Positions 7,121 to 22,256 of a stretch of 64,000 nucleotides of DNA are shown here, piece by piece. How positions within the stretch are numbered: position 1 is the stretch's first letter; every line of letters begins with the position of its first letter. Source of the stretch: Escherichia coli (GTDB lineage: Bacteria; Pseudomonadota; Gammaproteobacteria; Enterobacterales; Enterobacteriaceae); assembly GCF_030013205.1 (NCBI RefSeq), contig NZ_CP122648.1. One strand, written 5' to 3'. The translations under genes were made by a program, and so were the position numbers. The notes beneath the pieces were generated by a model. The model was not told the origin of the DNA, ran no database searches, and saw nothing but the letters and a program-made list of their open reading frames with translations.

Positions 7121-7196
7121 GCCCGGATAGCTCAGTCGGTAGAGCAGGGGATTGAAAATCCCCGTGTCCTTGGTTCGATTCCGAGTCCGGGCACCA
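7121..7196 (+). tRNA. pheU: tRNA-Phe (anticodon GAA)
   Basis: 76-nt cloverleaf sequence GCCCGGATAGCTCAGTCGGTAGAGCAGGGGATTGAAAATCCCC...CCA; anticodon loop TTGAAAA. Confidence 0.95.
7174..7196 (+). repeat. attL core (3' end of pheU), duplicated at 38277-38298
   Basis: 23 nt ttcgattccgagtccgggcacca; 22 of these recur (one G fewer) at 38277. Confidence 0.75.
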
Positions 7197-7393: not shown

Positions 7394-8656
7394 ATGGCAC
7401 TGACTGACGCAAAAATCCGGGCTGCAAAGCCCACTGACAAGGCTTATAAACTCACTGACGGGGCCGGCATGTTCCTGCTGGTTCATCCTAATGGTTCCCG
7501 TTACTGGCGTCTCCGCTATCGTATTCTGGGTAAGGAGAAGACTCTGGCACTTGGTGTGTATCCAGAAGTTTCTCTCTCCGAAGCTCGTACAAAACGGGAT
7601 GAGGCCCGAAAACTGATTTCAGAGGGGATTGACCCTTGCGAACAGAAAAGAGCTAAAAAAGTTGTCCCTGATTTACAGCTCTCTTTTGAACATATTGCAC
7701 GACGCTGGCATGCCAGTAATAAACAATGGGCACAATCACACAGCGATAAAGTACTCAAAAGCCTCGAGACACACGTTTTCCCCTTTATCGGCAACCGGGA
7801 TATCACAACACTCAGTACCCCGGACCTGCTTATCCCTGTTCGTGCTGCAGAAGCTAAACAAATTTATGAAATCGCCAGTCGTCTGCAGCAAAGAATATCT
7901 GCTGTAATGCGTTATGCCGTACAGTCTGGCATCATCAGATATAACCCGGCTCTGGATATGGCTGGTGCATTGACCACGGTAAAACGCCAGCATCGCCCTG
8001 CACTGGATCTTTCACGCCTGCCTGAACTTCTGTCGCGTATTGACGGTTATAAAGGCCAGCCTGTCACCCGACTGGCAGTTATGCTGAATTTACTGGTTTT
8101 TATTCGTTCCAGTGAACTCAGATACGCCCGCTGGTCTGAAATTGATATTGACAATGCCATGTGGACTATTCCAGCCGAACGCGAACCTCTGCCTGGCGTA
8201 AAATTCTCACACCGGGGCTCCAAGATGCGAACACCACATCTTGTGCCACTCAGCAAACAGGCTGTAGCCATACTGGCAGAACTACAGACATGGGCTGGTG
8301 AAAATGGTCTGATCTTTACGGGAGCACATGACCCGCATAAACCAATCAGTGAAAATACTGTAAATAAAGCCCTGAGGGTGATGGGGTATGACACAACCCA
8401 GGATGTCTGTGGCCATGGATTCCGTGCGATGGCATGTAGTGCGCTGATCGAATCAGGTTTGTGGTCCCGCGATGCTGTTGAACGTCAGATGAGCCATCAG
8501 GAACGTAACGGTGTACGCGCTGCGTATATCCATAAAGCCGAACATCTGGAAGAACGCCGGCTGATGCTACAGTGGTGGGCAGATTTTCTGAATGCGAACA
8601 GAGAGAAATGTATCAGTCCGTTTGATTATGCAAAGATCAACAATCCATTAAAATAG
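7394..8656 (+). CDS. int: P4-type tyrosine integrase
   Basis: 420 aa directly downstream of tRNA-Phe; N-terminal MALTDAKIRAAKP... and C-terminal HGFRAMA...RAAY tyrosine-recombinase signature. Confidence 0.9.
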   Translation: MALTDAKIRAAKPTDKAYKLTDGAGMFLLVHPNGSRYWRLRYRILGKEKTLALGVYPEVSLSEARTKRDEARKLISEGIDPCEQKRAKKVVPDLQLSFEHIARRWHASNKQWAQSHSDKVLKSLETHVFPFIGNRDITTLSTPDLLIPVRAAEAKQIYEIASRLQQRISAVMRYAVQSGIIRYNPALDMAGALTTVKRQHRPALDLSRLPELLSRIDGYKGQPVTRLAVMLNLLVFIRSSELRYARWSEIDIDNAMWTIPAEREPLPGVKFSHRGSKMRTPHLVPLSKQAVAILAELQTWAGENGLIFTGAHDPHKPISENTVNKALRVMGYDTTQDVCGHGFRAMACSALIESGLWSRDAVERQMSHQERNGVRAAYIHKAEHLEERRLMLQWWADFLNANREKCISPFDYAKINNPLK

Positions 8657-9429: not shown

Positions 9430-9753
9430 CTGACTGGCATTAGGCCGCCGGGGGCGTTTTTTTACCACCGGGACTTCGGACATAACGGTGTTTTCAGTAA
9501 GTACGACAGGTACTGTGGAGGCACTCCCGTAAAGACGGGCATCAAGTTCCCGCTCCGACATACCTGCGGGCAGAGGCCATGAAAGGCCAGCTTTTCGGAA
9601 GCGCACGAACATACCACAAACTGTTGATTTTGGTACGCCCAGGCGACGTCCGGCCACAATCCGTGGTAAATGTTCTTCAAAGTGAAGACGTAAAGCTTCA
9701 GTGATCCAGGTCCGGTATTCCATACGATAGTGTCCATTAAAAATGATGGACAT
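9418..9753 (-). pseudogene. transposase N-terminal HTH fragment (family uncertain)
   Basis: 111-aa ORF with HTH-like segment (RRLGVPKSTV), embedded among IS debris. Confidence 0.3.
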
Positions 9754-10251
9754 TATTTTTGTGGAGCCGGAGGAAACACACCAGACTGTTTAAATGAGCC
9801 GGTTACCGAAATACGCGGGTTGCCGGTGTCTGAACGCCTGGCGGTCAGGCAAATGCAGAGTAAACCGCTACTGACTTCCCTGTATAAGCTGATGCAGGAG
9901 AAAGAACACACATTATCGAAAAAATGCCGTCTGAGAGATGCGTTCCGGTATATCCGGAAGCACTGGGTTGCGTTGTGCAACTTCTGTGATGATGGTCTGG
10001 CGGAGGCGGATAATAATGCCGCGGAAAGAGCGCTTCGTGCAGTCTGTCTCGGAAAGAAAAACTTTATGTTCTTCGGCAGCGATCACGGCGGCGAGCGAGG
10101 AGCACTGTTGTACGGGCTGATCGGCACCTGCCGACTGAACGGTATCGATCCGGAAGCGTATCTGCGCCATATCCTGAGCGTACTGCCGGAATGGCCTTCC
10201 AACCGAGTTGACGAACTCCTGCCATGGAACGTAGTACTCACCAATAAATAA
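9730..10251 (+). pseudogene. IS66-family transposase (TnpC) C-terminal fragment
   Basis: 173-aa ORF ending ...GIDPEAYLRHILSVLPEWPSNRVDELLPWN; gtaagcg-type end motif about 40 bp downstream. Confidence 0.6.
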
Positions 10252-10385
10252 GCGTCAATACGGCACTCCGTTAACGCTTACGTTTAAGTCATAAAGCCAT
10301 GCAGAACGCTCACCTCCCAAGATCTTGGTTTTTATAAGGTGTAATGATAATGTAAGCTAATGTTTCACATGCCAAAGGAAACACC

Positions 10386-11714
10386 ATGAGCCACAGGGAA
10401 TTGTTCAGCGAATTTCTTGAAAATTTGAATCTTGACCTCAAACAGGCAAAAAAGATCAGCTATCACTATCGAAAAATAACCAAGTCATTAAATCTTGCGT
10501 TCAGAGGAACGAGTTCCCGGGTAGCAAACCGCTTGAAAGTGGGGTCAGTAGGCAGACATACCGCAATAAAAGGCATATCCGATCTGGATATGCTTTATAT
10601 TATGCCCCCCAATCAGTATGAATATTATAACCGTAAGGATAATGGTCAGTCTGCATTGCTTACAGATGTCAGAAACATTCTGGCGGAAGAATATCCTGAC
10701 CAGACTGTGAAAAAGGACAGACTGGTTGTTCAGATCATCTTTAAAAACTTTTATGTCGAGGTTCAACCTGTATTCAGACAGGATGATGACAGCTTTAAAT
10801 TCCCTGAAAGCTATAATGGAGGAGCATGGCGCATTACAAAACCTCTTCACGAAAAGGCGGCCATGACCGCATTTTCGCGAGATAAATCCAATAATCTGCG
10901 CAAGCTGTGTAAAATGATCAGAGCCTGGAAGAACCTGCATGGCGTCAATATGGGTGGCTTACTGATAGACACACTAGCGTATCGCTTTCTTTCATCAACA
11001 TCAGATTATGACAATACCGGAAATGGCAGCCTGGGAGCCCTCGCCAGAGACTTTTTTGAATATCTGTCAAATGAGGAGAGAAAGGAAAGGTATCTCGCGT
11101 TAGGCAGTAATCAGCATGTACGTGTTAAATCTCCCTGGTTTGGCCGGGCAGCGAAACACGCGTATGAATTATGTTGTGATGCCTTAGACGCTGAGGGGGC
11201 TGCCAGTGAAAATGACCGCTGGCGCAAAGTGTTCGGACGAGCCTTCCCCAGACGTAAAGTGGGTATTATGGAAGCCCGTCTTGGTCTGGAATCGCATGCG
11301 GCAGATGCTGTTCCCTGGACCGATACCGAAGAGTTTATAGAGGATAAATATCCGGTGGATATCAGGTACTCACTCAACCTTGACTGTACCGTAACCCAGG
11401 ATGGTTTCCCTCCCAGAAGCCTGAGGGAGATGCTTACCAGAAGATTCCGCCTCTCCGCTCGAAAATCTCTCCTTTTCCGGGCAGACTTGACAGAAATGGA
11501 GGCAGAGGAACCCTACACCGTTATGTGGAAGGTACTGAACGTGGGTGACGAAGCACGCAGAAGAAATATGATCCGGGGACAAATCGTTTCGGACGGCGGC
11601 TACTGTACGAAGAAAGAAACTACCGACTTCCGCGGAGATCACATGGTAGAATGCTATGTGATAAAAAATGAGGTTGTGGTTGCCCGGGCCCAGATTGAAG
11701 TTCCCATAAGCTGA
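10386..11714 (+). CDS. Pol-beta-fold nucleotidyltransferase with C-terminal extension (SMODS/CD-NTase-like plus AGS-C-like region)
   Basis: ATG with SD aaagga; GS-x10-SDLD nucleotidyltransferase signature (VGSVGRHTAIKGISDLD); about 150-aa C-terminal extension; AT-rich gene. Confidence 0.6.
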   Translation: MSHRELFSEFLENLNLDLKQAKKISYHYRKITKSLNLAFRGTSSRVANRLKVGSVGRHTAIKGISDLDMLYIMPPNQYEYYNRKDNGQSALLTDVRNILAEEYPDQTVKKDRLVVQIIFKNFYVEVQPVFRQDDDSFKFPESYNGGAWRITKPLHEKAAMTAFSRDKSNNLRKLCKMIRAWKNLHGVNMGGLLIDTLAYRFLSSTSDYDNTGNGSLGALARDFFEYLSNEERKERYLALGSNQHVRVKSPWFGRAAKHAYELCCDALDAEGAASENDRWRKVFGRAFPRRKVGIMEARLGLESHAADAVPWTDTEEFIEDKYPVDIRYSLNLDCTVTQDGFPPRSLREMLTRRFRLSARKSLLFRADLTEMEAEEPYTVMWKVLNVGDEARRRNMIRGQIVSDGGYCTKKETTDFRGDHMVECYVIKNEVVVARAQIEVPIS

Positions 11715-11721
11715 GGTTTTT

Positions 11722-12297
11722 ATGACGCAATCAGAGATGCTGAAATTAATCGCCCGACATGGTTATAACGTTGGATTTGGCGCTAAGAAAAACTTTGCCA
11801 CCTATGATCTGATTTGTAAGGCATCCGGTTGGATTAGCTTTATTTCTCTTGCTGTCGGTGTGTTCGCCCTTTTTATTCCTGAGCTGGCCACAAACGTCAT
11901 TTCCGCGATATTAATTATATTTGGTGTTGCTACAATGTACATTCAGTTTTATGACTCGGAAAAGCAGAGTTATGAAAGTGCGGGGATTGAGCAGACCAAA
12001 ATTTTTAATGAACTTGAAGTCATCTACCGCAACGTAAAAAGCGATGCAAACTTTGACTATCAGCGTACACAACAATCCATCGACGCTATCATGTCCCGGT
12101 TTTACGGCACGGTCATCAGCAAACAGATCTTCGGAAGTAACTGGTACGCACATTATAAATTTTACTGTGAATTTGAAAAAGCATGGGTTGAAGAAGAGCT
12201 GAACCTGACACTGAAGGACAAAATCCCGCTTTCGCTCTGCTTTCTCGCCGGTCTGGCGATCATTTTTACTATAGCTGTCATCTGGAAAACGCCCTGA
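11722..12297 (+). CDS. small multi-TM membrane protein (SLATT-like predicted effector)
   Basis: 191 aa, starts 8 nt after the nucleotidyltransferase stop with SD gagg; two adjacent N-proximal hydrophobic helices and one C-terminal helix. Confidence 0.55.
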   Translation: MTQSEMLKLIARHGYNVGFGAKKNFATYDLICKASGWISFISLAVGVFALFIPELATNVISAILIIFGVATMYIQFYDSEKQSYESAGIEQTKIFNELEVIYRNVKSDANFDYQRTQQSIDAIMSRFYGTVISKQIFGSNWYAHYKFYCEFEKAWVEEELNLTLKDKIPLSLCFLAGLAIIFTIAVIWKTP

Positions 12298-12848: not shown

Positions 12849-13574
12849 TTATGATGTACATAATACCTTAAAATTATCAACTAGCTGAGCATTAACCTCC
12901 ATCTGACTAATCCCCCATAATGCGGCTAACTGTTTCTCTGCAATCCCACTATCCCATGGCATTAGTGGGTCATTACGAAACTTAGCAAATGGCCCATCTG
13001 TTTCTGTAAGAATGCGTGATTTGGGTATTTTCAAAACTAAGGCCTTACCCTTTATTGTATCGAGCATAGCAGGCCCCACTGAGAACCAGCATCCTAAATC
13101 AATTGCCCTTTCAAGCTGCTTAGGTGTTCCAGTGAACCAATGCAATATTGCCACCCCATCGATATTTTCAATCTCATCAAGCACCGCTGATGCACTTCCC
13201 CGACTATGGATAGTCATAATCTTGCCACCAGCCCGATTTACACTGTTGAGAATGTGTCGGAACACTTTCAATTGAATATCCCAATGTTCTTTAAATCCCT
13301 GTCCACCATCAAGCCCTATTTCCCCTACATACTTAGTTTCCGAAAGCAATGAATCAAACAGGTCTAACTCATGCGATCTTTGATGCGCGATTTGAGGATG
13401 TAGCCCAAGAGCAGTTCGGATTCGTTGACTTTCTTTAGCCAATAAAGAAGTACCATGCCATGCTTTAGGTGTTGTTGTCACCGACAGAATATAAGTCCCT
13501 CGACGTTTACTTTCTTCAGCCACGAGGTCTGGCCGAGGATATAAGTCTAGATGACAGTGCATATCGATGCTCAT
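12849..13574 (-). CDS. qatD: TatD-family metal-dependent DNase (QatD)
   Basis: 241 aa; N-terminal HxH metal motif (MSIDMHCHLDLYP); start ATG overlaps qatC stop (ATGA). Confidence 0.8.
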   Translation of the reverse strand: MSIDMHCHLDLYPRPDLVAEESKRRGTYILSVTTTPKAWHGTSLLAKESQRIRTALGLHPQIAHQRSHELDLFDSLLSETKYVGEIGLDGGQGFKEHWDIQLKVFRHILNSVNRAGGKIMTIHSRGSASAVLDEIENIDGVAILHWFTGTPKQLERAIDLGCWFSVGPAMLDTIKGKALVLKIPKSRILTETDGPFAKFRNDPLMPWDSGIAEKQLAALWGISQMEVNAQLVDNFKVLCTS

Positions 13575-14890
13575 ACTATGTTCTCACTCAGTAAATAGCT
13601 TTCAACCTCATCCAGGCCATCCTTAAATACTTGCTTGAAATTATCAAATTCTGCCGTAGGCAAAGGGCCACTTTTGGCAATCCATGTACCTATTTTCAAA
13701 GTCGATTTCTGCGTGATCGCAATCCTAAGGGCGATCAGGTCGTCCCTGCGATCTATTTCATTCATTACTTTAGCTAAGGACTGGAAAATATATTCAACAT
13801 CTCTACTAATTCCCCCTGCATGAAGTGATGCTCGTCGAATGATACACGGTATACATACCCCACATTGCTGCCCCATTCGTTTCCAATGACTGCAGGATAC
13901 TGTACTTTCCACAATTTTAGATAAGAGCTGCTTATTTGAACATTCGGAGATCATTTTTCCTTTTGTCTTAAACTGATATGGATTGATTATTTGACAAGAA
14001 ATACCGAGCGCATCAAAGATCTTTTGTATGCTCGTAATAAAATGTGGATGTGTTGTTCGTGTGCTCAGCGAACCTATCCGCCGTGGAGTAAGTGGTGCAT
14101 TTAATGAGATAAATCCATTTTCAGGTACGAACAAATCAATCTTTTCTTGTTGAGATATCTCTTGTACGGCACAAGCACCTACGGCCGCAAAGGCAAGAAA
14201 ATTGAGGCTACGAGTTCGCATCGTAATATCAGTCACGCCTTGATAAATGTGTGGGTCAGCATTAATCTCAAAGCGCGAAAATTGGCCACTTAATTTTTCA
14301 GCAATCTGATCTTGACGAGACTTATCCCCCTTATAAGCATGACTAACCAAAAGTGGAGCGCGCCCTGCAGCCAGAAGATCTATTGCACCAATAGCTGAAT
14401 CCAGACCTCCTGAAAATAGGCTGACACAGTCAAGCCCTTTTAGCTTAATCAGACGATGCCTTGAATGCTGGCTATAAGGCTCTGGCGGTGCATAACCATC
14501 GTCACAAAATTCGAAATCCCAGATGTCTCCACTAAGAAAATGCAAAGCACTCTCAAGTTCTTTCTTTAGACTAATCCATCTGGATGGTTCATGAAGGGGG
14601 AGTCGTAACGACAATTGGCGGGTCCAACCATCCTCGGAACTTTCACGCTGAACGAAAGTATCTGCTGCAGTTACTGCTAATGCAACACTCAGAAAATCCA
14701 TGACCTTAGCTGGAAGCTGTACTCCCAAACGTCTGATCCGATCAATCGCAGGATTCCCGATAACAGATATATCTCCGCGCCTCTGACCACTTAATCCATA
14801 TAGCTGAACAGGTAACACTTTCTCACTTGCTGGCGGCAAATGGTGATGTTTATGATGGAAAACTAATTGTGTCACTGGTATGCCTCCCAT
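13571..14890 (-). CDS. qatC: QueC-like PP-loop ATPase (QatC)
   Basis: 439 aa; PP-loop SGGLDS; C-terminal Cys cluster CSHW...CGVCIPC as in QueC. Confidence 0.8.
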   Translation of the reverse strand: MGGIPVTQLVFHHKHHHLPPASEKVLPVQLYGLSGQRRGDISVIGNPAIDRIRRLGVQLPAKVMDFLSVALAVTAADTFVQRESSEDGWTRQLSLRLPLHEPSRWISLKKELESALHFLSGDIWDFEFCDDGYAPPEPYSQHSRHRLIKLKGLDCVSLFSGGLDSAIGAIDLLAAGRAPLLVSHAYKGDKSRQDQIAEKLSGQFSRFEINADPHIYQGVTDITMRTRSLNFLAFAAVGACAVQEISQQEKIDLFVPENGFISLNAPLTPRRIGSLSTRTTHPHFITSIQKIFDALGISCQIINPYQFKTKGKMISECSNKQLLSKIVESTVSCSHWKRMGQQCGVCIPCIIRRASLHAGGISRDVEYIFQSLAKVMNEIDRRDDLIALRIAITQKSTLKIGTWIAKSGPLPTAEFDNFKQVFKDGLDEVESYLLSENIV

Positions 14891-15624
14891 TCTTGCCAGG
14901 CCTCAATAATGGCCTGACGTTCAATTTTTACCATTTGGTTTCGTGTGAACGATCTTATGTTACCGGCAAGTTTTGGTGCCATATGTTTATCAACAACAAC
15001 TTTAATCAATTCCCGGAGTTCAATTTCTGCATGAATTGCCTTTGAAGGTGTATCTGCTTTGTTCCATGCCCTATTAGAATCCATTACCATCTGAAGGAAA
15101 ATACTTTCCGCTAGATAACCAATCATTGTGTCAACAATCACACCATCAGTTATTTTTTGAGGATCGAAAATTTCTACGCCATCAAGAGCCTCCACTAAAG
15201 CATGGTTCATGGCCGCACAGATCTTTTCTGAGTCACCATCCTGTGATGTTAAAGCTTGAGCAATAGTTGATATTGCTATTTCGCATGGAAGGCCTGCCAA
15301 ACTGCCCAAATCGATGCTTGGTTCTCCGGGAGCCGAAGGCATTCCCACTAAAGCCCCAAATAATTCGGCCCCAGCTTGCGTGACACTCCCTAATCGCCGA
15401 GCAGCGTTACTGCTCCCTCCGGAGGCTTTTCGCGCGTAGTGCCCTATGGCTTTTCTGAAATCTGCTCGATTTCCATTTGATACCGCATTTCCCAACGATT
15501 CTCGAAATGGCGCAAACCTCCTTTCTTGCGGCGAGGGTAACGGTTGCTGTGGCTGATCATCAGCCCATGGTGGAACCAGCGGAGAGCCACCTCCTGGACC
15601 TTTACTTGATTGTGATGTTCCCAT
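14872..15624 (-). CDS. qatB: QatB (function unknown)
   Basis: 250 aa Gly/Pro-rich protein between the KAP ATPase and QueC-like genes; start overlaps qatA stop by 1 nt, 3' end overlaps qatC by 19 nt. Confidence 0.65.
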   Translation of the reverse strand: MGTSQSSKGPGGGSPLVPPWADDQPQQPLPSPQERRFAPFRESLGNAVSNGNRADFRKAIGHYARKASGGSSNAARRLGSVTQAGAELFGALVGMPSAPGEPSIDLGSLAGLPCEIAISTIAQALTSQDGDSEKICAAMNHALVEALDGVEIFDPQKITDGVIVDTMIGYLAESIFLQMVMDSNRAWNKADTPSKAIHAEIELRELIKVVVDKHMAPKLAGNIRSFTRNQMVKIERQAIIEAWQEWEAYQ

Positions 15625-17408
15625 TAAGCGTCCTTATTCCATTGTTCATCTTTTAATGCTGCAGTCATCCACGCTGGTCGTTTCATCCCCAACTGTAATT
15701 CCTGTAGATAACGAATTAATATGCTGGCTGCATCTGTTGAGTAGCGGGCCAACAGACATGCGCCGGAAAAGCCTCTGGGCTTACGATCCCAATCTGATAC
15801 CTGCCGTAACTGGTTAATTAAACCTTCCATTACAGGTATTTGCTCCTCACGAGGAAGTGCTTTCAAAAGGTTTTCTGCTGTAGGAGAACTAGTGTTTTTC
15901 AATTCAATTAGTGCATTTAGTACTTCCCGTCCAGATGGCGATAAACCAACCACATATGCACCTATTGGCATAGTTTCTCGGGACAGATATATGGCGGCCC
16001 TTAAGTCAATCCCACCAAGACGAGGTTCAAGTTGGGCCCATTGACTGATGAAAGATTTAGTCGTTGGACTATCAGTCCATGTCTTTGGTGCATCAGTAGG
16101 TATTTGACCGCCATTATCGTCAAGCTGTTTAAGTATCTGGGGAACACCTTGTTCAATATCCACGAGATGATATAAATCAGCGGTGCCATCCACTCCAACA
16201 CAGCGTTCAAAAATTACTAGCTTAGTAATAATTGCTTCATCCAAAGGCATTGCTCGTCGCTTCGCAATTTGAGATCGCATTTTCACAACATTCAACAAGC
16301 GTTTAACGATCCTGGGATTACCATGAATAATTGGAGAGTTGGCTAAAATGGGAGCAATACGGTCAGCACGCGCAAACGCCAGCGCGAGGTTGCTATCATC
16401 CGCTTCACCAGTCATTTTTAAGGCCTCCTGACGTGAGATTGGTTCATCTTTCCAGGATTGCTGTAACGCCTTCTCTAAGCCCTCACGGAGCATAGTTATT
16501 TTTTCGCCTTCTAAGCCATGTTCAATGGCATAAAGCATGAACAGATACGAACGGATCTCACGGACCCCAGCCTTAGGCACCCGAATAGGAACCTGGATTA
16601 GCTTATCCAGATAATCTATTTGATGGCGCTGTGATGCCCCTTTGAAGTAATCAGCCACAGAAGAGCGAATCATGTCCTCATCTGCTGCAATAATAAAGGC
16701 TGTATTAGTCAAGAAAAGGAATAGCCTGATAGCTTCAAGTGTATGGATAGCATTGGCAGGGAGACAGCGGTCTAGGTTATCTATTACCACAATGAGTGGC
16801 TTTCCAAGTTCTTCTAGAATTTCCCCATATTCCTTACGAAAGGCATCAATCTGCTGAGGGGGGCTTTTTTTTGTTTGTGGTTTAATCAAACCACAAGCAG
16901 TTTCTTTACCTTCTTTAGCTATATTGCCTAAAGCCTCATACTCTTCCTGACTCTGGATGCCATCGGTGATATTTCTTAATGCACCAATCCCCCTAGAAAG
17001 CAAACCGCCAGTAGGTAATCCTGCCATTAAAGCTGTACCCTCAGCTAGTAATCCCATAGCTCTAAAACCATCAACTCGACTAAGGAGTCTCTTAGTTTTT
17101 GATATAAGGGTAGAATTACCTTCAGCAGCTTTTGTCAATTCTGTAGCGATGACTTCAAGAAGTGCGGCACGGGCGTCGTCGTACCCCTGATAGAGCCAAG
17201 AGTCAAAATTGATAACAATCCAATCTTTGTCGTCTTGCTCAAGTTTTTGCTCTATCAGTTTTAACAGAGAGGATTTACCTGCCCCCCAGTTTCCAAAAAT
17301 TCCGATAGATACTGGTAACATATCTTTCGTGGTAAGTACATCCACGGCTAACTGAGATACTTCACCAAAATTTAGGTAGTCTTCTGATGACTCTTTGTCT
17401 GACCACAT
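15624..17408 (-). CDS. qatA: KAP-family P-loop NTPase (QatA)
   Basis: 594 aa; Walker A GNWGAGKSS near N-terminus. Confidence 0.8.
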   Translation of the reverse strand: MWSDKESSEDYLNFGEVSQLAVDVLTTKDMLPVSIGIFGNWGAGKSSLLKLIEQKLEQDDKDWIVINFDSWLYQGYDDARAALLEVIATELTKAAEGNSTLISKTKRLLSRVDGFRAMGLLAEGTALMAGLPTGGLLSRGIGALRNITDGIQSQEEYEALGNIAKEGKETACGLIKPQTKKSPPQQIDAFRKEYGEILEELGKPLIVVIDNLDRCLPANAIHTLEAIRLFLFLTNTAFIIAADEDMIRSSVADYFKGASQRHQIDYLDKLIQVPIRVPKAGVREIRSYLFMLYAIEHGLEGEKITMLREGLEKALQQSWKDEPISRQEALKMTGEADDSNLALAFARADRIAPILANSPIIHGNPRIVKRLLNVVKMRSQIAKRRAMPLDEAIITKLVIFERCVGVDGTADLYHLVDIEQGVPQILKQLDDNGGQIPTDAPKTWTDSPTTKSFISQWAQLEPRLGGIDLRAAIYLSRETMPIGAYVVGLSPSGREVLNALIELKNTSSPTAENLLKALPREEQIPVMEGLINQLRQVSDWDRKPRGFSGACLLARYSTDAASILIRYLQELQLGMKRPAWMTAALKDEQWNKDA

Positions 17409-17539
17409 TTTTATATCCTTTACATCACCAATTTTTACGTCATTGAGTAAACTACAGGTTTGATAAAACCAACTCTGTTCAGGTGGGCAAATTCAGTGTA
17501 CCACTTCATCAATAATCCAATATGATGACTGCTATAGAT

Positions 17540-18742
17540 CTATTTTTTAAAGAATGAAATAAGCTTTCTTATCCCAGTCCATATTTTCCTATCAGAATCC
17601 GAAGGGTTAAATTCGCTCTTGTCAAAATCAGCAACCTCAGCAACCTCAGCAACCTCAGCAACCTCAGCAACCTCAGCAACCTCAGCAACCTCAGCAACCT
17701 CAGCAACCTCAGCAACCTCAGCAACCTCAGCAACCTCAGCAACCTCAGCAACCTCAGCAAGGTTTATTCTATTTTGATGAGCTGTCAAATGTTCTTTGTT
17801 AATTTCATCTCTAATTAGCTGTTCTTTTTCTATGCTGTAGTTTTTGTCATTATAAGTCACATCAAAATCATCTAAGAAAACGATATAAATCAATTTAAAA
17901 AAACTAGTCTTAAATAAAAAACTATCGCACTCATCAGGAAAACCAAAAAAGAAAACATTAAGATATTTGGTTGCTTTGCGCTTGTCTTTTAGTCCATTAT
18001 AATACTTATTTGCTTCTGCTCTTTGTTTTTCATACTCACTACAGAAAAAACTCTTTTTACTTTCATCCCATTCTGAAGCATCAATTTCAAGTTTATATGC
18101 TTGTTTGGTACCTTTCTTTCTGGCTAAAAAAGTAAGGTAATATCTATTCGAATTTATCTCCAGCCGTATATTAGATTGAATTTTACCAAAATAAATTGCT
18201 GGCTTATTATATCTAATTCCTTCTTTATAGATGATTAGTTGAAAAGTATCTTTATAAGTTCTAACTCCATAAGGGGGAATTGATAATGGTTCATAGAGAT
18301 TATCTCCATTAATGTAGTAGTCTACTACCGGTTTGATGCTTGAAGATGACACAGGGTGTACTTTACCTCCCAAATCTTTTTCATCATCTCGCGTCTGTTT
18401 GATAATTCTTCTGCCAGAAGAGTCGTAATTTCTTTCAGACACATCAAGTTTCAGAAGAGATATAGCTAATGCCGGTGGTGAATTATGCTTTTTATTATTC
18501 TTTGAGTTACACTTATTTTTACTCTTAGGATCATGAATCTTACATCCCGGCCTATGAGTCTCTTTATATCGAAAGTATGATTGATTTAAATTTATTTCTT
18601 TGAAGCTACATGGAGTAGCGGGTATCCTACATTTGTCATACGGGCATTCAAAAGTGGTTGTTCGTATATAAAGATCATCCATTTCCCGAAGATCATGACC
18701 ATGAACAATTTCACCACTAACAGAATCTCTTGCTATTGTCAC
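17540..18742 (-). CDS. hypothetical protein with N-terminal Cys cluster and C-terminal (Ala-Glu-Val)n repeat
   Basis: 400 aa; GTG start preceded by perfect SD AAGGAG at 5-nt spacing; C33/C38/C45/C67 with flanking His; AT-rich; co-directional with qatA 131 bp downstream. Confidence 0.6.
   Translation of the reverse strand: MTIARDSVSGEIVHGHDLREMDDLYIRTTTFECPYDKCRIPATPCSFKEINLNQSYFRYKETHRPGCKIHDPKSKNKCNSKNNKKHNSPPALAISLLKLDVSERNYDSSGRRIIKQTRDDEKDLGGKVHPVSSSSIKPVVDYYINGDNLYEPLSIPPYGVRTYKDTFQLIIYKEGIRYNKPAIYFGKIQSNIRLEINSNRYYLTFLARKKGTKQAYKLEIDASEWDESKKSFFCSEYEKQRAEANKYYNGLKDKRKATKYLNVFFFGFPDECDSFLFKTSFFKLIYIVFLDDFDVTYNDKNYSIEKEQLIRDEINKEHLTAHQNRINLAEVAEVAEVAEVAEVAEVAEVAEVAEVAEVAEVAEVAEVAEVADFDKSEFNPSDSDRKIWTGIRKLISFFKK
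17628..17760. repeat. perfect 9-bp tandem repeat (gcaacctca), about 14.8 copies, in-frame within the 400-aa CDS
   Basis: Direct reading of sequence; encodes the AEV repeat on the minus strand. Confidence 0.97.
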
Positions 18743-18980
18743 ACAATCTCCTTTGATAAAAATTAATAGATTCTAATTTCATACCAAGGCTAATTTAAAT
18801 AAAGGCTATTTAAGAGAAAAACAAGTCAGCCTGACAGACATATCCCCTCCCATGGCAATATGCCGCTATTTCGCGTTTTTTTTCACGCCATAATGCGTTT
18901 CAAGGTAGCGAATATCTTCGATTGCCCATGGTGTGCGCATTCTTTTGGGTTTATTTTCCATTACCATGTTTTATCAGCCA

Positions 18981-19190
18981 TCATGGCAGCCTCTCCGGTT
19001 TGCCAGCGTGTTCCACCTGATAACGATTAATCAGCTGATTCAGTGCCATTTCAGCCTGTTTTTGCTGCTGTTCACTGCCATTCTGGTTACGGGCTTCATC
19101 ATAGCGACGTAACTGCTCTTCCGCCGGGATATGCCGGTTAAAAGCCTGCATGATGCCAAACACCTCTGTTTTCAGTTCACTGACCGTCAT
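18981..19190 (-). CDS. small hypothetical protein
   Basis: 69 aa from internal ATG with SD gggga (track ORF 84 aa); Gln/Glu-rich helical sequence. Confidence 0.4.
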   Translation of the reverse strand: MTVSELKTEVFGIMQAFNRHIPAEEQLRRYDEARNQNGSEQQQKQAEMALNQLINRYQVEHAGKPERLP

Positions 19191-19950
19191 GTATTTTCCC
19201 CGCTGTTCATCCAGACGGTTCAGGCGCTCAGCCATCCGCGGCCTGAAGAGATAAAGGCGATAATAAAACAGACATCAGTGTCAGTGACAGCAAGGACGGA
19301 CAGCGCCGGAATAAGCTTTGTTCCTCAGCCCTCACGTTCCTGCAACATAATTTTCCAGCCAAACGAAAAACCTTTTATTCATGCCATACCAATAATCGCC
19401 AGCCTCCTGGCGATGCCTCCCACCATGTTTTGCAGTGGTACGCTACCGCCCTTCCGGTATTTACCCGCATCAACCGGTACCAGAATGCTGAGTAACAAAC
19501 CAGCTCAGAACTGACTGAATTTTGATCATTATAGAATAATGATCTGAACTGCAGCAATATAACAGATTTATCGATCGATATAACGCAAATGAACAGATCT
19601 TTATTCTGTCATATATCGCAAAAACAGCACATTACAAAATTTATAACCATAATTAATGGAAAAGTGCAGAAAATTATTCCACTGAATGCTTTTAATACAG
19701 TTAGTTAGCTAAAAAAATAGCAATTTTTGATTTCAGTCATTGAAAATTGCAATGCGTGACGATTCAACAGCATTTAAGTGAGTTTCAGGATATGGGAAGG
19801 ACATGAAAGGAGGAGCGCAATAAAATATACAGGAAGAAGGGGAAAATGTTTCGTAAAAACAGAAAATTAACAGCGCACATCAGGAAACTCAGTCTCCTGA
19901 TTCAGTGCTACCACATGAAAATTTAGTTAACTGTTACCGTACTAAAATTT

Positions 19951-21456: not shown

Positions 21457-21870
21457 TCACTCCTGGTCCCGGAGCAAATCTGGCTGGTATCTGTAAACAT
21501 ACTTCGTACATGCCGCTCTGCAATAAATCCCCGTATCACAGGTTTCACAGAACTTCTTCCCATGAAAAAGCCTCTCGCACATCACGCAATGCCACTCCAG
21601 CACGACAGGTAATGGCGATAAAAACATCGCCATATCATCAATGTAAGGATGGGATTTTTCCGGATTCAGCACCACGCAGGCCGCCTTCTGTTGCGCGCTC
21701 AGGGCATGTAAATCATGCTCAAACCACGCCCCCTGAGCATCTGTCTGCAAAATCAACCGGCCACGACAGGAAAGGCAGAAACACTGCCGGATATTTCTGC
21801 TGAGCGCAGAGTTGGCACTGATAATGTGCTCACCCGGCGTGATCCCCAGCCCCATTTTTATGCCGTTCAT
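21457..21870 (-). CDS. Cys/His-rich small protein (putative zinc-binding)
   Basis: 137 aa with multiple CxxC pairs; ATG overlaps upstream gene stop (ATGA). Confidence 0.5.
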   Translation of the reverse strand: MNGIKMGLGITPGEHIISANSALSRNIRQCFCLSCRGRLILQTDAQGAWFEHDLHALSAQQKAACVVLNPEKSHPYIDDMAMFLSPLPVVLEWHCVMCERLFHGKKFCETCDTGIYCRAACTKYVYRYQPDLLRDQE

Positions 21871-22256
21871 CCTGCTACCACCTCCTCACTGAAGCGCCCG
21901 GTCTGGCAGTGTGTGCAGTACTGCTCCCCATAATAATCGTGGTGACATTGTCTGCAGTACCAGCTGGCTTTACGTACTACGGGTAAGGCATCCGGTACGA
22001 ATTGCTGCAGACGTTTAATCAAACGTATTTCTCTGCGTTCCGGTCTGACATAAGGGCACTCATGACCGTGCTCAGTCAGCCCATCGTCAGTGTGTTCAAA
22101 CCAGGGACGTTCAGTGTCGTATTGCGGGTGGTATCTGAGTGCACTGCCACAAAGATGACAGGTATAACGATCATATGGCGCAGTCTGTGCGGTACGGGCA
22201 CCGGTCAGACGTCCGTTGCCATCAAATGCGAGAAAAGATTTTGCGTACATAGTCAT
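21867..22256 (-). CDS. Cys/His-rich small protein (putative zinc-binding)
   Basis: 129 aa; SD gagga; CHLCG...CPY...CRQCHH...CTHCQ motifs. Confidence 0.55.
   Translation of the reverse strand: MTMYAKSFLAFDGNGRLTGARTAQTAPYDRYTCHLCGSALRYHPQYDTERPWFEHTDDGLTEHGHECPYVRPERREIRLIKRLQQFVPDALPVVRKASWYCRQCHHDYYGEQYCTHCQTGRFSEEVVAG

Follow-up and report, generated by a model that had tools for sequence, protein, structure and literature searches.

A long-form Avs8B-family protein with a repeat-encoded spacer, encoded next to the Qat operon in an Escherichia coli tRNA-Phe island

We analysed a 64,000-nucleotide stretch of Escherichia coli DNA (contig NZ_CP122648.1, assembly GCF_030013205.1; 'the window', to which coordinates refer unless stated otherwise), in which an open reading frame (ORF) encoding the hypothetical protein WP_000150684.1 lies directly upstream of the Qat defence operon. 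Sequence comparison places the ORF in the uncharacterised Avs8B / PD-Lambda-4_B family, as a divergent long form with an extended C-terminus. On our evidence it is a cargo gene in its own right on a tRNA-Phe genomic island, and not a fifth component of Qat. The best overall explanation, which we hold to be probable with moderate confidence, is that this island gene encodes a long-form Avs8B that binds nucleic acid while tethered at the membrane, and that it acts on its own. The family is already known as gene B of the catalogued PD-lambda-4 system; new here are the structural description, the independence from any one defence system, the long-form architecture and the link to two variable-number tandem repeats (VNTRs).

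17540-18742, minus strand: the ORF, 400 aa, hypothetical protein WP_000150684.1 (ORF list and translation; RefSeq annotation of the identical locus)

The ORF belongs to the Avs8B family

The ORF product matches the PADLOC profile PD-Lambda-4_B (PDLC03992) directly with an E-value of 4.1e-6, residues 209-288 aligning with positions 222-296 of the 303 in the profile. A phmmer search of 1.84 billion representatives gave 68 relatives, most of them aligned over residues ~1-290, and the links from the ORF to relatives of ~300 aa had E-values of 1e-5 to 1e-12. Seven of the eight short relatives scanned (~296-310 aa) match PD-Lambda-4_B end to end (1e-37 to 3e-92) and two scanned long forms match it at 3e-14 and 3e-7; one scanned relative of 306 aa (P0021) showed no match to this profile. 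Since the relatives found by phmmer match PD-Lambda-4_B, the ORF is best regarded as a divergent member of the Avs8B family. Foldseek comparison with ~300-aa relatives in the AlphaFold database gave E-values of ~1e-19 and target TM-scores of 0.70-0.73. Across AFDB50 there were 137 Foldseek matches at E <= 1e-3, from Proteobacteria, Actinobacteria and Bacteroidota; nearly all of the matches listed are named 'uncharacterized', and the rest carry repeat-driven or generic names (PARP, 'Ribonucleases G and E', WYL domain).

Pfam gave nothing significant for the ORF or for any of the 56 family members, the best match being CoiA_N at 7e-3 in one member. NCBIfam gave no match to the ORF protein, and a PDB sequence-profile search gave none at E <= 1. 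The sequence-only reading of this DNA had called the protein unassignable, with middle and C-terminal portions that match nothing, and had proposed profile and structure searches. The Pfam, NCBIfam and PDB sequence searches are indeed empty; PADLOC, phmmer and Foldseek nevertheless place the protein in an uncharacterised family, PD-Lambda-4_B, so that 'unassignable' no longer applies.

Matches of the ORF protein to PHROGs fell in the low-complexity, repeat region only and were dismissed. No family match was found by tblastn in 50,697 phage genomes (INPHARED), and 2.9 million viral contigs (IMG/VR) yielded one family locus only. The family is thus essentially absent from phage genomes in these collections, and a phage-gene origin was rejected.

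PD-lambda-4 has been renamed Avs8, in which Avs8A is an Mrr-STAND sensor (STAND, signal transduction ATPases with numerous domains) of major capsid proteins (bioRxiv 10.1101/2025.07.02.662641). The ORF does not form a two-gene operon with Avs8A, and neither does the relative with the best profile match among those examined (P0052), which sits beside Hachiman. Given that placement, adjacency to Avs8A appears to define the PD-lambda-4 system and not the protein family.

The ORF and Qat are separately inherited modules

The ORF starts with GTG at 18742-18740 and its stop codon is 131 bp from the start of qatA (17408), both genes lying on the minus strand. The sequence-only reading had described a 400-aa, AT-rich, GTG-started ORF behind an AAGGAG motif, co-directional with qatA and 131 bp before it, and all of this is seen in the sequence. 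Its naming of the downstream genes as the Qat operon agrees with PADLOC (E-values from 0 to 6e-97). It had also offered the ORF as a possible fifth Qat component, and here our results point the other way.

12849-17408, minus strand: qatD, qatC, qatB and qatA (PADLOC: QatA E = 0, QatB 9e-131, QatC 2e-140, QatD 6e-97)
17409-17539, minus strand: 131-bp spacer between the ORF and qatA, of which the last 14 bp (17409-17422) alone are common with the Xenorhabdus Qat module
18981-19235, minus strand: remnant of vasL, a type VI secretion system (T6SS) gene, immediately upstream of the ORF (RefSeq pseudogene annotation)

The family profile was run by hmmsearch against all six frames within 7 kb of qatC in seven independent Qat loci, and none of the seven gave a match at E <= 10. 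These loci are on plasmids from six genera: Xenorhabdus (QatC 86.6% identical), Acinetobacter, two from Vibrio, Calothrix, P. aeruginosa and Methylobacterium. As positive controls, eight of eight loci were recovered by the same profile at E <= 1e-75. Co-occurrence of homologues with Qat outside E. coli, which had been suggested for survey, was therefore seen at 0/7 loci.

Homology at the DNA level divides the region in the same place. By blastn, the Qat module of an X. nematophila plasmid matches window positions 12854-17422 only, at 85% DNA identity, ending 14 bp before qatA. Citrobacter and Klebsiella loci instead match 17752-18783, which is the ORF with its leader, and the vasL remnant at 19113-19214. 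Because the homology blocks differ, we take Qat on the one hand and the ORF with the vasL remnant on the other to be two separately inherited modules. Base composition differs too: the ORF has a GC content of 34.6% (32.1% with the repeat excluded) and a third-position GC (GC3) of 0.25, against 43-47% and 0.34-0.36 for the qat genes. The Qat promoter appears not to be part of the shared module, since homology between E. coli and Xenorhabdus starts 14 bp before qatA; on this alignment the E. coli Qat promoter must lie in ORF-side sequence, or transcription must come from read-through.

Going on from tRNA-Phe, Citrobacter portucalensis has the integrase, the orthologue of the ORF, an Old nuclease (PADLOC E 8e-67), vasL, PD-lambda-1 and T6SS, and K. 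aerogenes has, in this order, ORF, a 237-aa gene, Old and vasL. The C. portucalensis orthologue is 79% identical and ends in KILTGIKKIISFFKK. These Citrobacter and Klebsiella tRNA-Phe islands have no Qat at the position of the ORF. The vasL remnant of the window goes together with the ORF and points to the Citrobacter and Klebsiella arrangement as the ancestral one. As they share the linkage of ORF and vasL, the ORF looks like a conserved anchor gene of tRNA-Phe islands, with different defence cargo inserted to its two sides: in E. coli Qat and CBASS (cyclic oligonucleotide-based antiphage signalling system) came in towards the integrase, and in Citrobacter and Klebsiella Old came in towards vasL. 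Hence in the window Qat and a type I CBASS were inserted between the island integrase and a pre-existing ORF. The gene has been kept under purifying selection, with a ratio of nonsynonymous to synonymous rates (dN/dS) of 0.185 at dS 0.62 against the Citrobacter orthologue (codons 2-328).

The same linkage could be read as a sign that the ORF is a T6SS-associated effector, immunity protein or adaptor, left with the vasL fragment after decay of the T6SS. The orthologue in Citrobacter and Klebsiella does lie at the end of a T6SS cluster, after vasL, and in E. coli the vasL remnant is immediately upstream. Between orthologue and vasL, however, stands the inserted Old nuclease; adjacency is limited to the Citrobacter, Klebsiella and E. 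coli lineage, all other relatives being without T6SS context; no Pfam domain of any kind matches; and the protein is predicted to be cytoplasmic, with a putative zinc site and no signal peptide or transmembrane segment. This role, already disfavoured, is highly improbable, and we rejected it on the restricted T6SS adjacency.

A different use of the Qat adjacency is to see the ORF as a non-essential accessory or adaptor of the neighbouring P-loop NTPase (here QatA, a KAP NTPase), tuning its sensing, range or localisation, much as Avs8B might do for Avs8A. The ORF is co-directional with qatA at 131 bp with no predicted terminator between them, and in E. coli ORF and Qat co-occur at nearly 1:1. 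The family first entered the catalogue as gene B of a STAND system (PADLOC; bioRxiv 10.1101/2025.07.02.662641), and one long form (P0022) is directly upstream of a 1792-aa Avs-like STAND gene. There is also room for modifiers in Qat, where QatA and QatD bear on the range of defence and not on its core activity (PMC13279940). Against this reading stand the absence of a relative from the other seven Qat loci, the two separately inherited modules, the difference in GC, and the neighbours of other relatives, which are Old (an ABC-ATPase/TOPRIM protein), Hachiman, DISARM-like genes, relaxases or nothing relevant; in the STAND system itself, Avs8B is dispensable for Avs8A (bioRxiv 10.1101/2025.07.02.662641). 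The near 1:1 co-occurrence, moreover, comes from 242 E. coli genomes with the ORF and 242 with Qat (>=80% query coverage), contiguous in the rows examined, and since this is a single module of >=99% identity it reflects one evolutionary event and is not independent evidence. We consider the adaptor role unlikely.

The idea of a fifth Qat component fares no better: no relative was found at the seven Qat loci, the homology blocks are separate, GC differs by ~10 points and E. coli QatBC alone protects against lambda-vir (PMC13279940). The Qat of E. coli NCTC9009 has been described as four genes (PMC13376578). On our comparison Qat stays a four-gene system, and the ORF should not be annotated 'QatE'.

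A predicted zinc domain and OB-like barrel form the core

An AlphaFold2 (AF2) model built from the family alignment had a mean confidence (pLDDT) of 82.3, with 90-98 in the core, and a predicted TM-score (pTM) of 0.74. The parts of the protein follow this model and the sequence.

18512-18742, minus strand: CCHC zinc-binding N-domain, residues 1-77 (C33, C38, H63 and C67 invariant)
18353-18511, minus strand: inner linker, residues 78-130, mostly disordered, basic and low-complexity, net charge +4 (AF2, net charge)
17831-18352, minus strand: OB-like beta-barrel, residues 131-304, with beta1-3, helix 227-250 and beta4-5; net charge +5
17759-17830, minus strand: start of the exit helix, residues 305-328 (AF2 secondary structure; helix 305-340 leaves the core into the repeat)
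17628-17760, minus strand: perfect 9-bp repeat (GCTGAGGTT)x14.8, 100% matches (Tandem Repeats Finder)
17543-17593, minus strand: C-terminal basic amphipathic helix, residues 384-400, DRKIWTGIRKLISFFKK, a putative membrane-targeting or partner-binding tip

The protein has cysteines at 33, 38, 45 and 67 and histidines at 63 and 70. Across the 56-sequence family alignment the sole invariant residues are C33, C38, H63 and C67. The sequence-only reading had guessed at a Cys4 zinc ribbon; a zinc site is borne out in spirit, with C33/C38/H63/C67 as predicted ligands of CCHC type, and C45, which is not conserved, drops out. Near-invariant positions in the 56 sequences, short forms included, are F57, L97, L153, Y163, F167, W225, F264 and F265. 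Since no polar residue besides the four metal ligands is invariant, the protein looks like a binder and not an enzyme. The N-terminal zinc domain of the model had no match in the PDB.

The inner linker is modelled with pLDDT 58-71 in blocks 71-90 and 101-130, and 92 in block 91-100, which holds the near-invariant L97. Beyond it the model shows a beta-barrel of five strands, a helix being placed between the third and the fourth, as expected of an oligonucleotide/oligosaccharide-binding (OB) fold, and this domain is net positive family-wide (median +6). The tail past the exit helix is of low AF2 confidence throughout, besides a terminal helix at 388-399 that is predicted, itself with low pLDDT. 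No transmembrane segment or signal peptide was found in the ORF protein, where Kyte-Doolittle hydropathy over 19 residues peaks at 1.38.

Two small proteins annotated 'putative zinc ribbon proteins' and encoded in the same island as the ORF (window 21457-21870 and 21867-22256, minus strand) carry a similar C-x2-C ... RPWFEH ... H-x-C motif. In hhalign, the family N-domain profile aligned with the second of them (21867-22256) with 57% probability and an E-value of 1e-4. It is possible, as judged from these motifs, that the two proteins (21457-22256) are distantly related to the zinc module of the family.

Long forms carry a variable spacer and an amphipathic tip

The family is split in two by what follows the core. 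Short forms end with it, leaving a tail of 0-7 residues, and long forms (25 of the 56 aligned sequences) add 70-221 low-complexity residues rich in Pro, Ser, Glu and Lys; some partial sequences, cut at contig ends within the repeat, fall between the groups. The ORF does not end with a ~300-aa core, its length being 400 aa in the window and 382-550 aa elsewhere in E. coli, with a tail of at least 96 residues.

All 25 complete long forms finish in a net-positive amphipathic helix, with endings such as ...IWTGIRKLISFFKK, ...SWIRRLFW, ...LVRRLWRWLFKR, ...FFQFIRRRR and ...IISWLRKFIRK. The ORF tip has a hydrophobic moment of 0.86 and a net charge of +6; the highest value for any 11-mer of the core is 0.76, and shuffled tips reached 0.86 in 165 of 5000 trials. 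For the FtsA C-terminus the computed moment is 0.78, below that of the ORF tip. The ORF thus has a terminal, net-positive amphipathic helix after a flexible linker, in the manner of FtsA and MinD, and by analogy with these its tail likely binds the membrane.

Between core and tip lies the acidic spacer (AEV)x14, residues 329-370 (codons 17633-17758), the tract noticed in the sequence-only reading. Compared with the window, 67 of 72 sampled E. coli genomes differ by exact multiples of 9 bp, which implies 8-64 repeat copies with a median of 34; the 14 of the window are near the low end. In other E. coli, perfect arrays of 8, 24 and 64 copies were confirmed by sequence, in alleles that are intact and have the same C-terminus. 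The flanks of the variable alleles are at least 98.4% identical, mostly at least 99.4%. Related isolates of enterotoxigenic E. coli from Belgian pigs have 14, 21, 22, 25, 27, 31, 40, 50 and 59 copies, and the same 9-bp unit is carried by the Citrobacter orthologue.

The remaining five of the 72 alleles (H118, H134, H147, H154 and H156) are off multiples of 9, at +125, +148, +172, +273 and +343 bp, four of these not being multiples of 3. Frameshifts, other indels or errors of long-read assembly could account for them.

Copy number varies between close strains, as in contingency genes, but the unit is a multiple of 3, unlike theirs. With units of 9 bp here and 6 bp in a paralogue, slippage would alter the length of the spacer and not the reading frame; ON/OFF phase variation was rejected for this reason and because the alleles checked are intact. 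A 63-aa (LLR)n ORF in another frame over the repeat (17569-17760, minus strand) was set aside as a mechanical by-product of the tandem repeat.

The paralogue is WP_000150580.1 of E. coli O157:H7, 58% identical to the ORF product, of the same long-form architecture and with nearly the same tip (KVWGRLKKIITFFKK). At the linker position where the ORF has its 9-bp AEV repeat, it has a perfect in-frame (GAGCCA)x17.7 that encodes (PE)n. It differs from the ORF in belonging to a different element with no Qat nearby, and it is known only as a typing marker. Both published primers for TR2, a locus of multiple-locus VNTR analysis (MLVA), match exactly around its repeat, at 9716-9733 and 10242-10259 of the EDL933 locus (L010).

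L010:9001-10221 (NZ_CP120944.1 1177005-1178225): the EDL933 paralogue carrying TR2

TR2 has the unit TGGCTC and was the most diverse locus of its scheme (PMC2246123). A literature search on the 9-bp unit, covering 6 of its 18 possible rotations, turned up no typing scheme based on it. Two hypervariable E. coli VNTRs are thus tied to the same position in two paralogues, which raises the question of selection on spacer length.

Relatives travel with islands and conjugative elements

The genomic context of relatives was surveyed in about 13 independent neighbourhoods, which do not amount to a statistical sample; an alignment search of the close clade gave 6 genomic loci.

O157:H7 EDL933 paralogue and Enterobacter, Pantoea and Erwinia relatives (long): after two tyrosine recombinases, a 543-aa protein and two small genes
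Enterobacter, Pantoea and Erwinia long forms (not EDL933): then a lipoprotein gene, a 222-aa gene and a MobP-like relaxase
Xenorhabdus long form: isolated copy beside the same lipoprotein gene as in the Enterobacter/Pantoea/Erwinia element
Yersinia long form: divergent from a MobQ/MobA relaxase; then traD and a pilV shufflon
Vibrio long forms: 39 plasmid records, most of the ~70-kb pVA1 type; the copy of pVA1, the one inspected, is in the transfer region and interrupted by an insertion sequence
P0022, metagenomic conjugative element (long): after a type IV coupling protein and TrwC; then a 1792-aa Avs-like STAND gene; ArdA nearby
P0030, end of a P2-like prophage (long): after integrase, MarR and HNH genes
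P0036 (short): divergent from brxR, SNF2 helicase and DUF1156 genes (DISARM-like)
P0052 (short, best Avs8B profile match): divergent from Hachiman hamA/hamB
P0046 (short): near an Imm_superinfect gene

Three unrelated elements have a relaxase (MobQ/MobA, TrwC and MobP-like, respectively) next to the family member or no more than two genes from it, and in pVA1 a MobC relaxase is ~8 kb from the family member in the same transfer region. In three unrelated elements the family member is integrase-proximal, a placement that the sequence-only reading had raised for survey. The contexts are so varied that the family appears to be carried as cargo on genomic islands and on conjugative or mobilisable elements, with no fixed partner. 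We suggest that Avs8B is a widespread, independent gene family of islands and mobile elements that is not tied to Avs8A. Its members lie beside at least six unrelated kinds of defence (Avs8A, Avs-like STAND, Qat, Old, Hachiman and DISARM-like), which would explain why Avs8A does not need Avs8B.

The V. parahaemolyticus pVA1 member (L005:8309-9193, 10098-10508) is seemingly split by ISVa2, an IS5-like element; a weak profile match (E 0.011) in the ORF right after ISVa2 suggests a displaced C-terminal part, and most of the other 38 Vibrio plasmid records likewise give matches of ~880 bp. The 1792-aa STAND protein (L024:9373-14751) resembles Avs4 and PDC-M54A, at E-values of 1e-17 to 3e-19. As its gene is downstream of P0022 and the TrwC relaxase-primase, a defence-type STAND gene is placed here inside a transfer region.

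So many defence genes nearby raise the thought that the ORF is a stand-alone, single-gene anti-phage or anti-plasmid defence protein in a Qat/CBASS hotspot. In most of the neighbourhoods examined, defence genes lie within a few kb: CBASS, Qat, Old, PD-lambda-1, Hachiman, DISARM-like with BrxR, Avs-like, AbiGi, DS1_2 anti-phage and HNH. The integrase-proximal position in three element types fits this reading, as does an ORF that is intact and under purifying selection, and it overlaps with our best explanation, where the direction of action stays open. On the other side, the protein has no conserved catalytic residues and no recognisable effector domain, many long forms lie in transfer regions beside relaxases and not in defence islands, and Avs8B without Avs8A gave no defence (bioRxiv 10.1101/2025.07.02.662641). 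We think defence as the sole function unlikely. Of the independent defence candidate in the same hotspot that had been proposed, the independence and the association with islands and mobile elements hold up; defence is unproven, and Avs8B, the sole member of the family put to the test, gave none without Avs8A.

The relaxases, in turn, suggest a handler of mobile-element DNA, either an SSB-like (single-stranded DNA-binding protein) or leading-region protein or a membrane-anchored accessory of the relaxosome or coupling protein, surviving as a leftover in a non-transferring E. coli island. SSB-type proteins in general are laid out in this way, with an OB fold, then a disordered linker, then a short conserved tip at the C-terminus; three MOB types of relaxase are adjacent or no more than two genes away, with a fourth (MobC) ~8 kb off in pVA1; ArdA is nearby in one element; and the family has one match in 2.9 million viral contigs and none in INPHARED. 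This reading is weakened by the lack of a sequence match to SSB or any Pfam family, by a tip that is basic and amphipathic, unlike the acidic SSB tip, and by short forms that occur in chromosomal defence islands without transfer genes. Near the ORF, in the annotated stretch of the window from ~5400 to 30900, no relaxase or mating genes were seen, yet the ORF is intact in at least 242 E. coli genomes. We regard this as improbable.

Layout of the island and expression signals

The tRNA-Phe island adjoins dsbD and dicD, and the order in the window is tRNA-Phe, integrase, insertion sequence debris, type I CBASS, qatD-C-B-A, ORF and vasL remnant. Beside the ORF, the island thus holds at least two defence systems, type I CBASS and Qat.

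7121-7196, plus strand: tRNA-Phe (ARAGORN)
7394-8656, plus strand: island integrase (annotation)
10386-11714, plus strand: type I CBASS cyclase, CD-NTase-type, 442 aa (PADLOC E 9e-177)
11722-12297, plus strand: CBASS 2TM/SLATT effector, 191 aa (PADLOC E 2e-82)
18748-18753, minus strand: Shine-Dalgarno AAGGAG, 5 nt ahead of the GTG (read from the sequence)
18770-18799, minus strand: candidate ORF promoter, sigma-70-like TTTAAA-18-TAGAAT, 9/12 (consensus scan)

We take the start site of the ORF as fixed, since the N-terminus MTIA(K/R)D is kept in homologues. The candidate promoter was the single site upstream of the ORF in a scan whose total number of sites was not above that of shuffles, and is weak evidence. 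The scan showed no terminator-like or promoter-like site in the 131 bp that separate the ORF from qatA; an attenuator or terminator there was rejected, the RNA fold being no better than shuffles (z = +1.55).

A proposed mode of action

In the model that we favour, the zinc domain and the positively charged OB barrel would together bind nucleic acid, most plausibly single-stranded DNA, as the predicted structure suggests. The C-terminal helix would anchor the protein at the inner membrane, on its cytoplasmic face, in the style of FtsA and MinD, or else dock a partner, and the variable spacer would set the reach of the binding module. The protein may then act alone on DNA at the envelope, be it incoming or outgoing conjugative DNA or injected phage DNA. 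Its role would lie within the conflict or traffic of mobile elements, as defence, counter-defence or help in transfer.

Several points weigh against this model. ORF and Qat are almost always together in E. coli, and because the spacer between them has no terminator- or promoter-like site, read-through from the ORF into qat is conceivable, so that some transcriptional coupling may exist. Avs8B is dispensable for Avs8 defence against lambda and gives no defence without Avs8A (bioRxiv 10.1101/2025.07.02.662641). The tip helix, modelled with low pLDDT, could bind a protein instead of the membrane, and a membrane step would be specific to the long-form clade, since short forms, Avs8B included, are without spacer and tip. 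The survey of contexts, as already said, is no statistical sample.

A bolder generalisation, which we think unlikely, is that long-form Avs8B-family proteins are a new class of membrane-tethered OB-fold DNA binders, acting autonomously at the inner membrane, on its cytoplasmic side, on envelope-crossing DNA (injected phage genomes or conjugative single strands), with a reach set by a hypermutable in-frame repeat. If so, spacer length would differ within a clonal population, and this contingency variation would work as a 'molecular ruler', unlike ON/OFF switching. The polymorphism of TR2, the most polymorphic MLVA locus of O157:H7, would then have a functional cause, and PD-lambda-4 gene B would count as a system of its own and not as part of Avs8.

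Comparison with known systems

The closest named relative of the ORF product is Avs8B of E. coli ECOR07 (WP_000443183.1), to which it appears homologous over the whole core of CCHC N-domain, inner linker and OB-like barrel, the link being made through intermediates; both are encoded in defence islands. Direct similarity is weak, at about 20-27% identity. Avs8B has ~303 aa and ends with the core, whereas the ORF goes on into an exit helix, a spacer encoded by the VNTR and an amphipathic tip. The neighbour of Avs8B is the Mrr-STAND protein Avs8A, and those of the ORF are qatA and the vasL remnant.

QatABCD adjoins the ORF on the same strand and is co-inherited with it within E. coli. In the other lineages examined, however, there is no conserved linkage, and the two differ in GC and belong to separate homology blocks.

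With SSB-type proteins (E. coli SSB, T7 gp2.5, T4 gp32) the ORF protein has no relation at the sequence level, and no Pfam, NCBIfam or PDB sequence match places it among SSB or RPA proteins. Its zinc site lies in a separate N-terminal domain, and its tip is basic and amphipathic where that of SSB is acidic.

The tails of FtsA and MinD share with the ORF a short, terminal, amphipathic and net-positive helix joined by a flexible linker to a soluble domain. That a DNA-binding protein can bring DNA to the membrane is known from Noc. The likeness to FtsA, MinD and Noc is an analogy of design without homology, and the spacer of the ORF is much longer than theirs and hypervariable.

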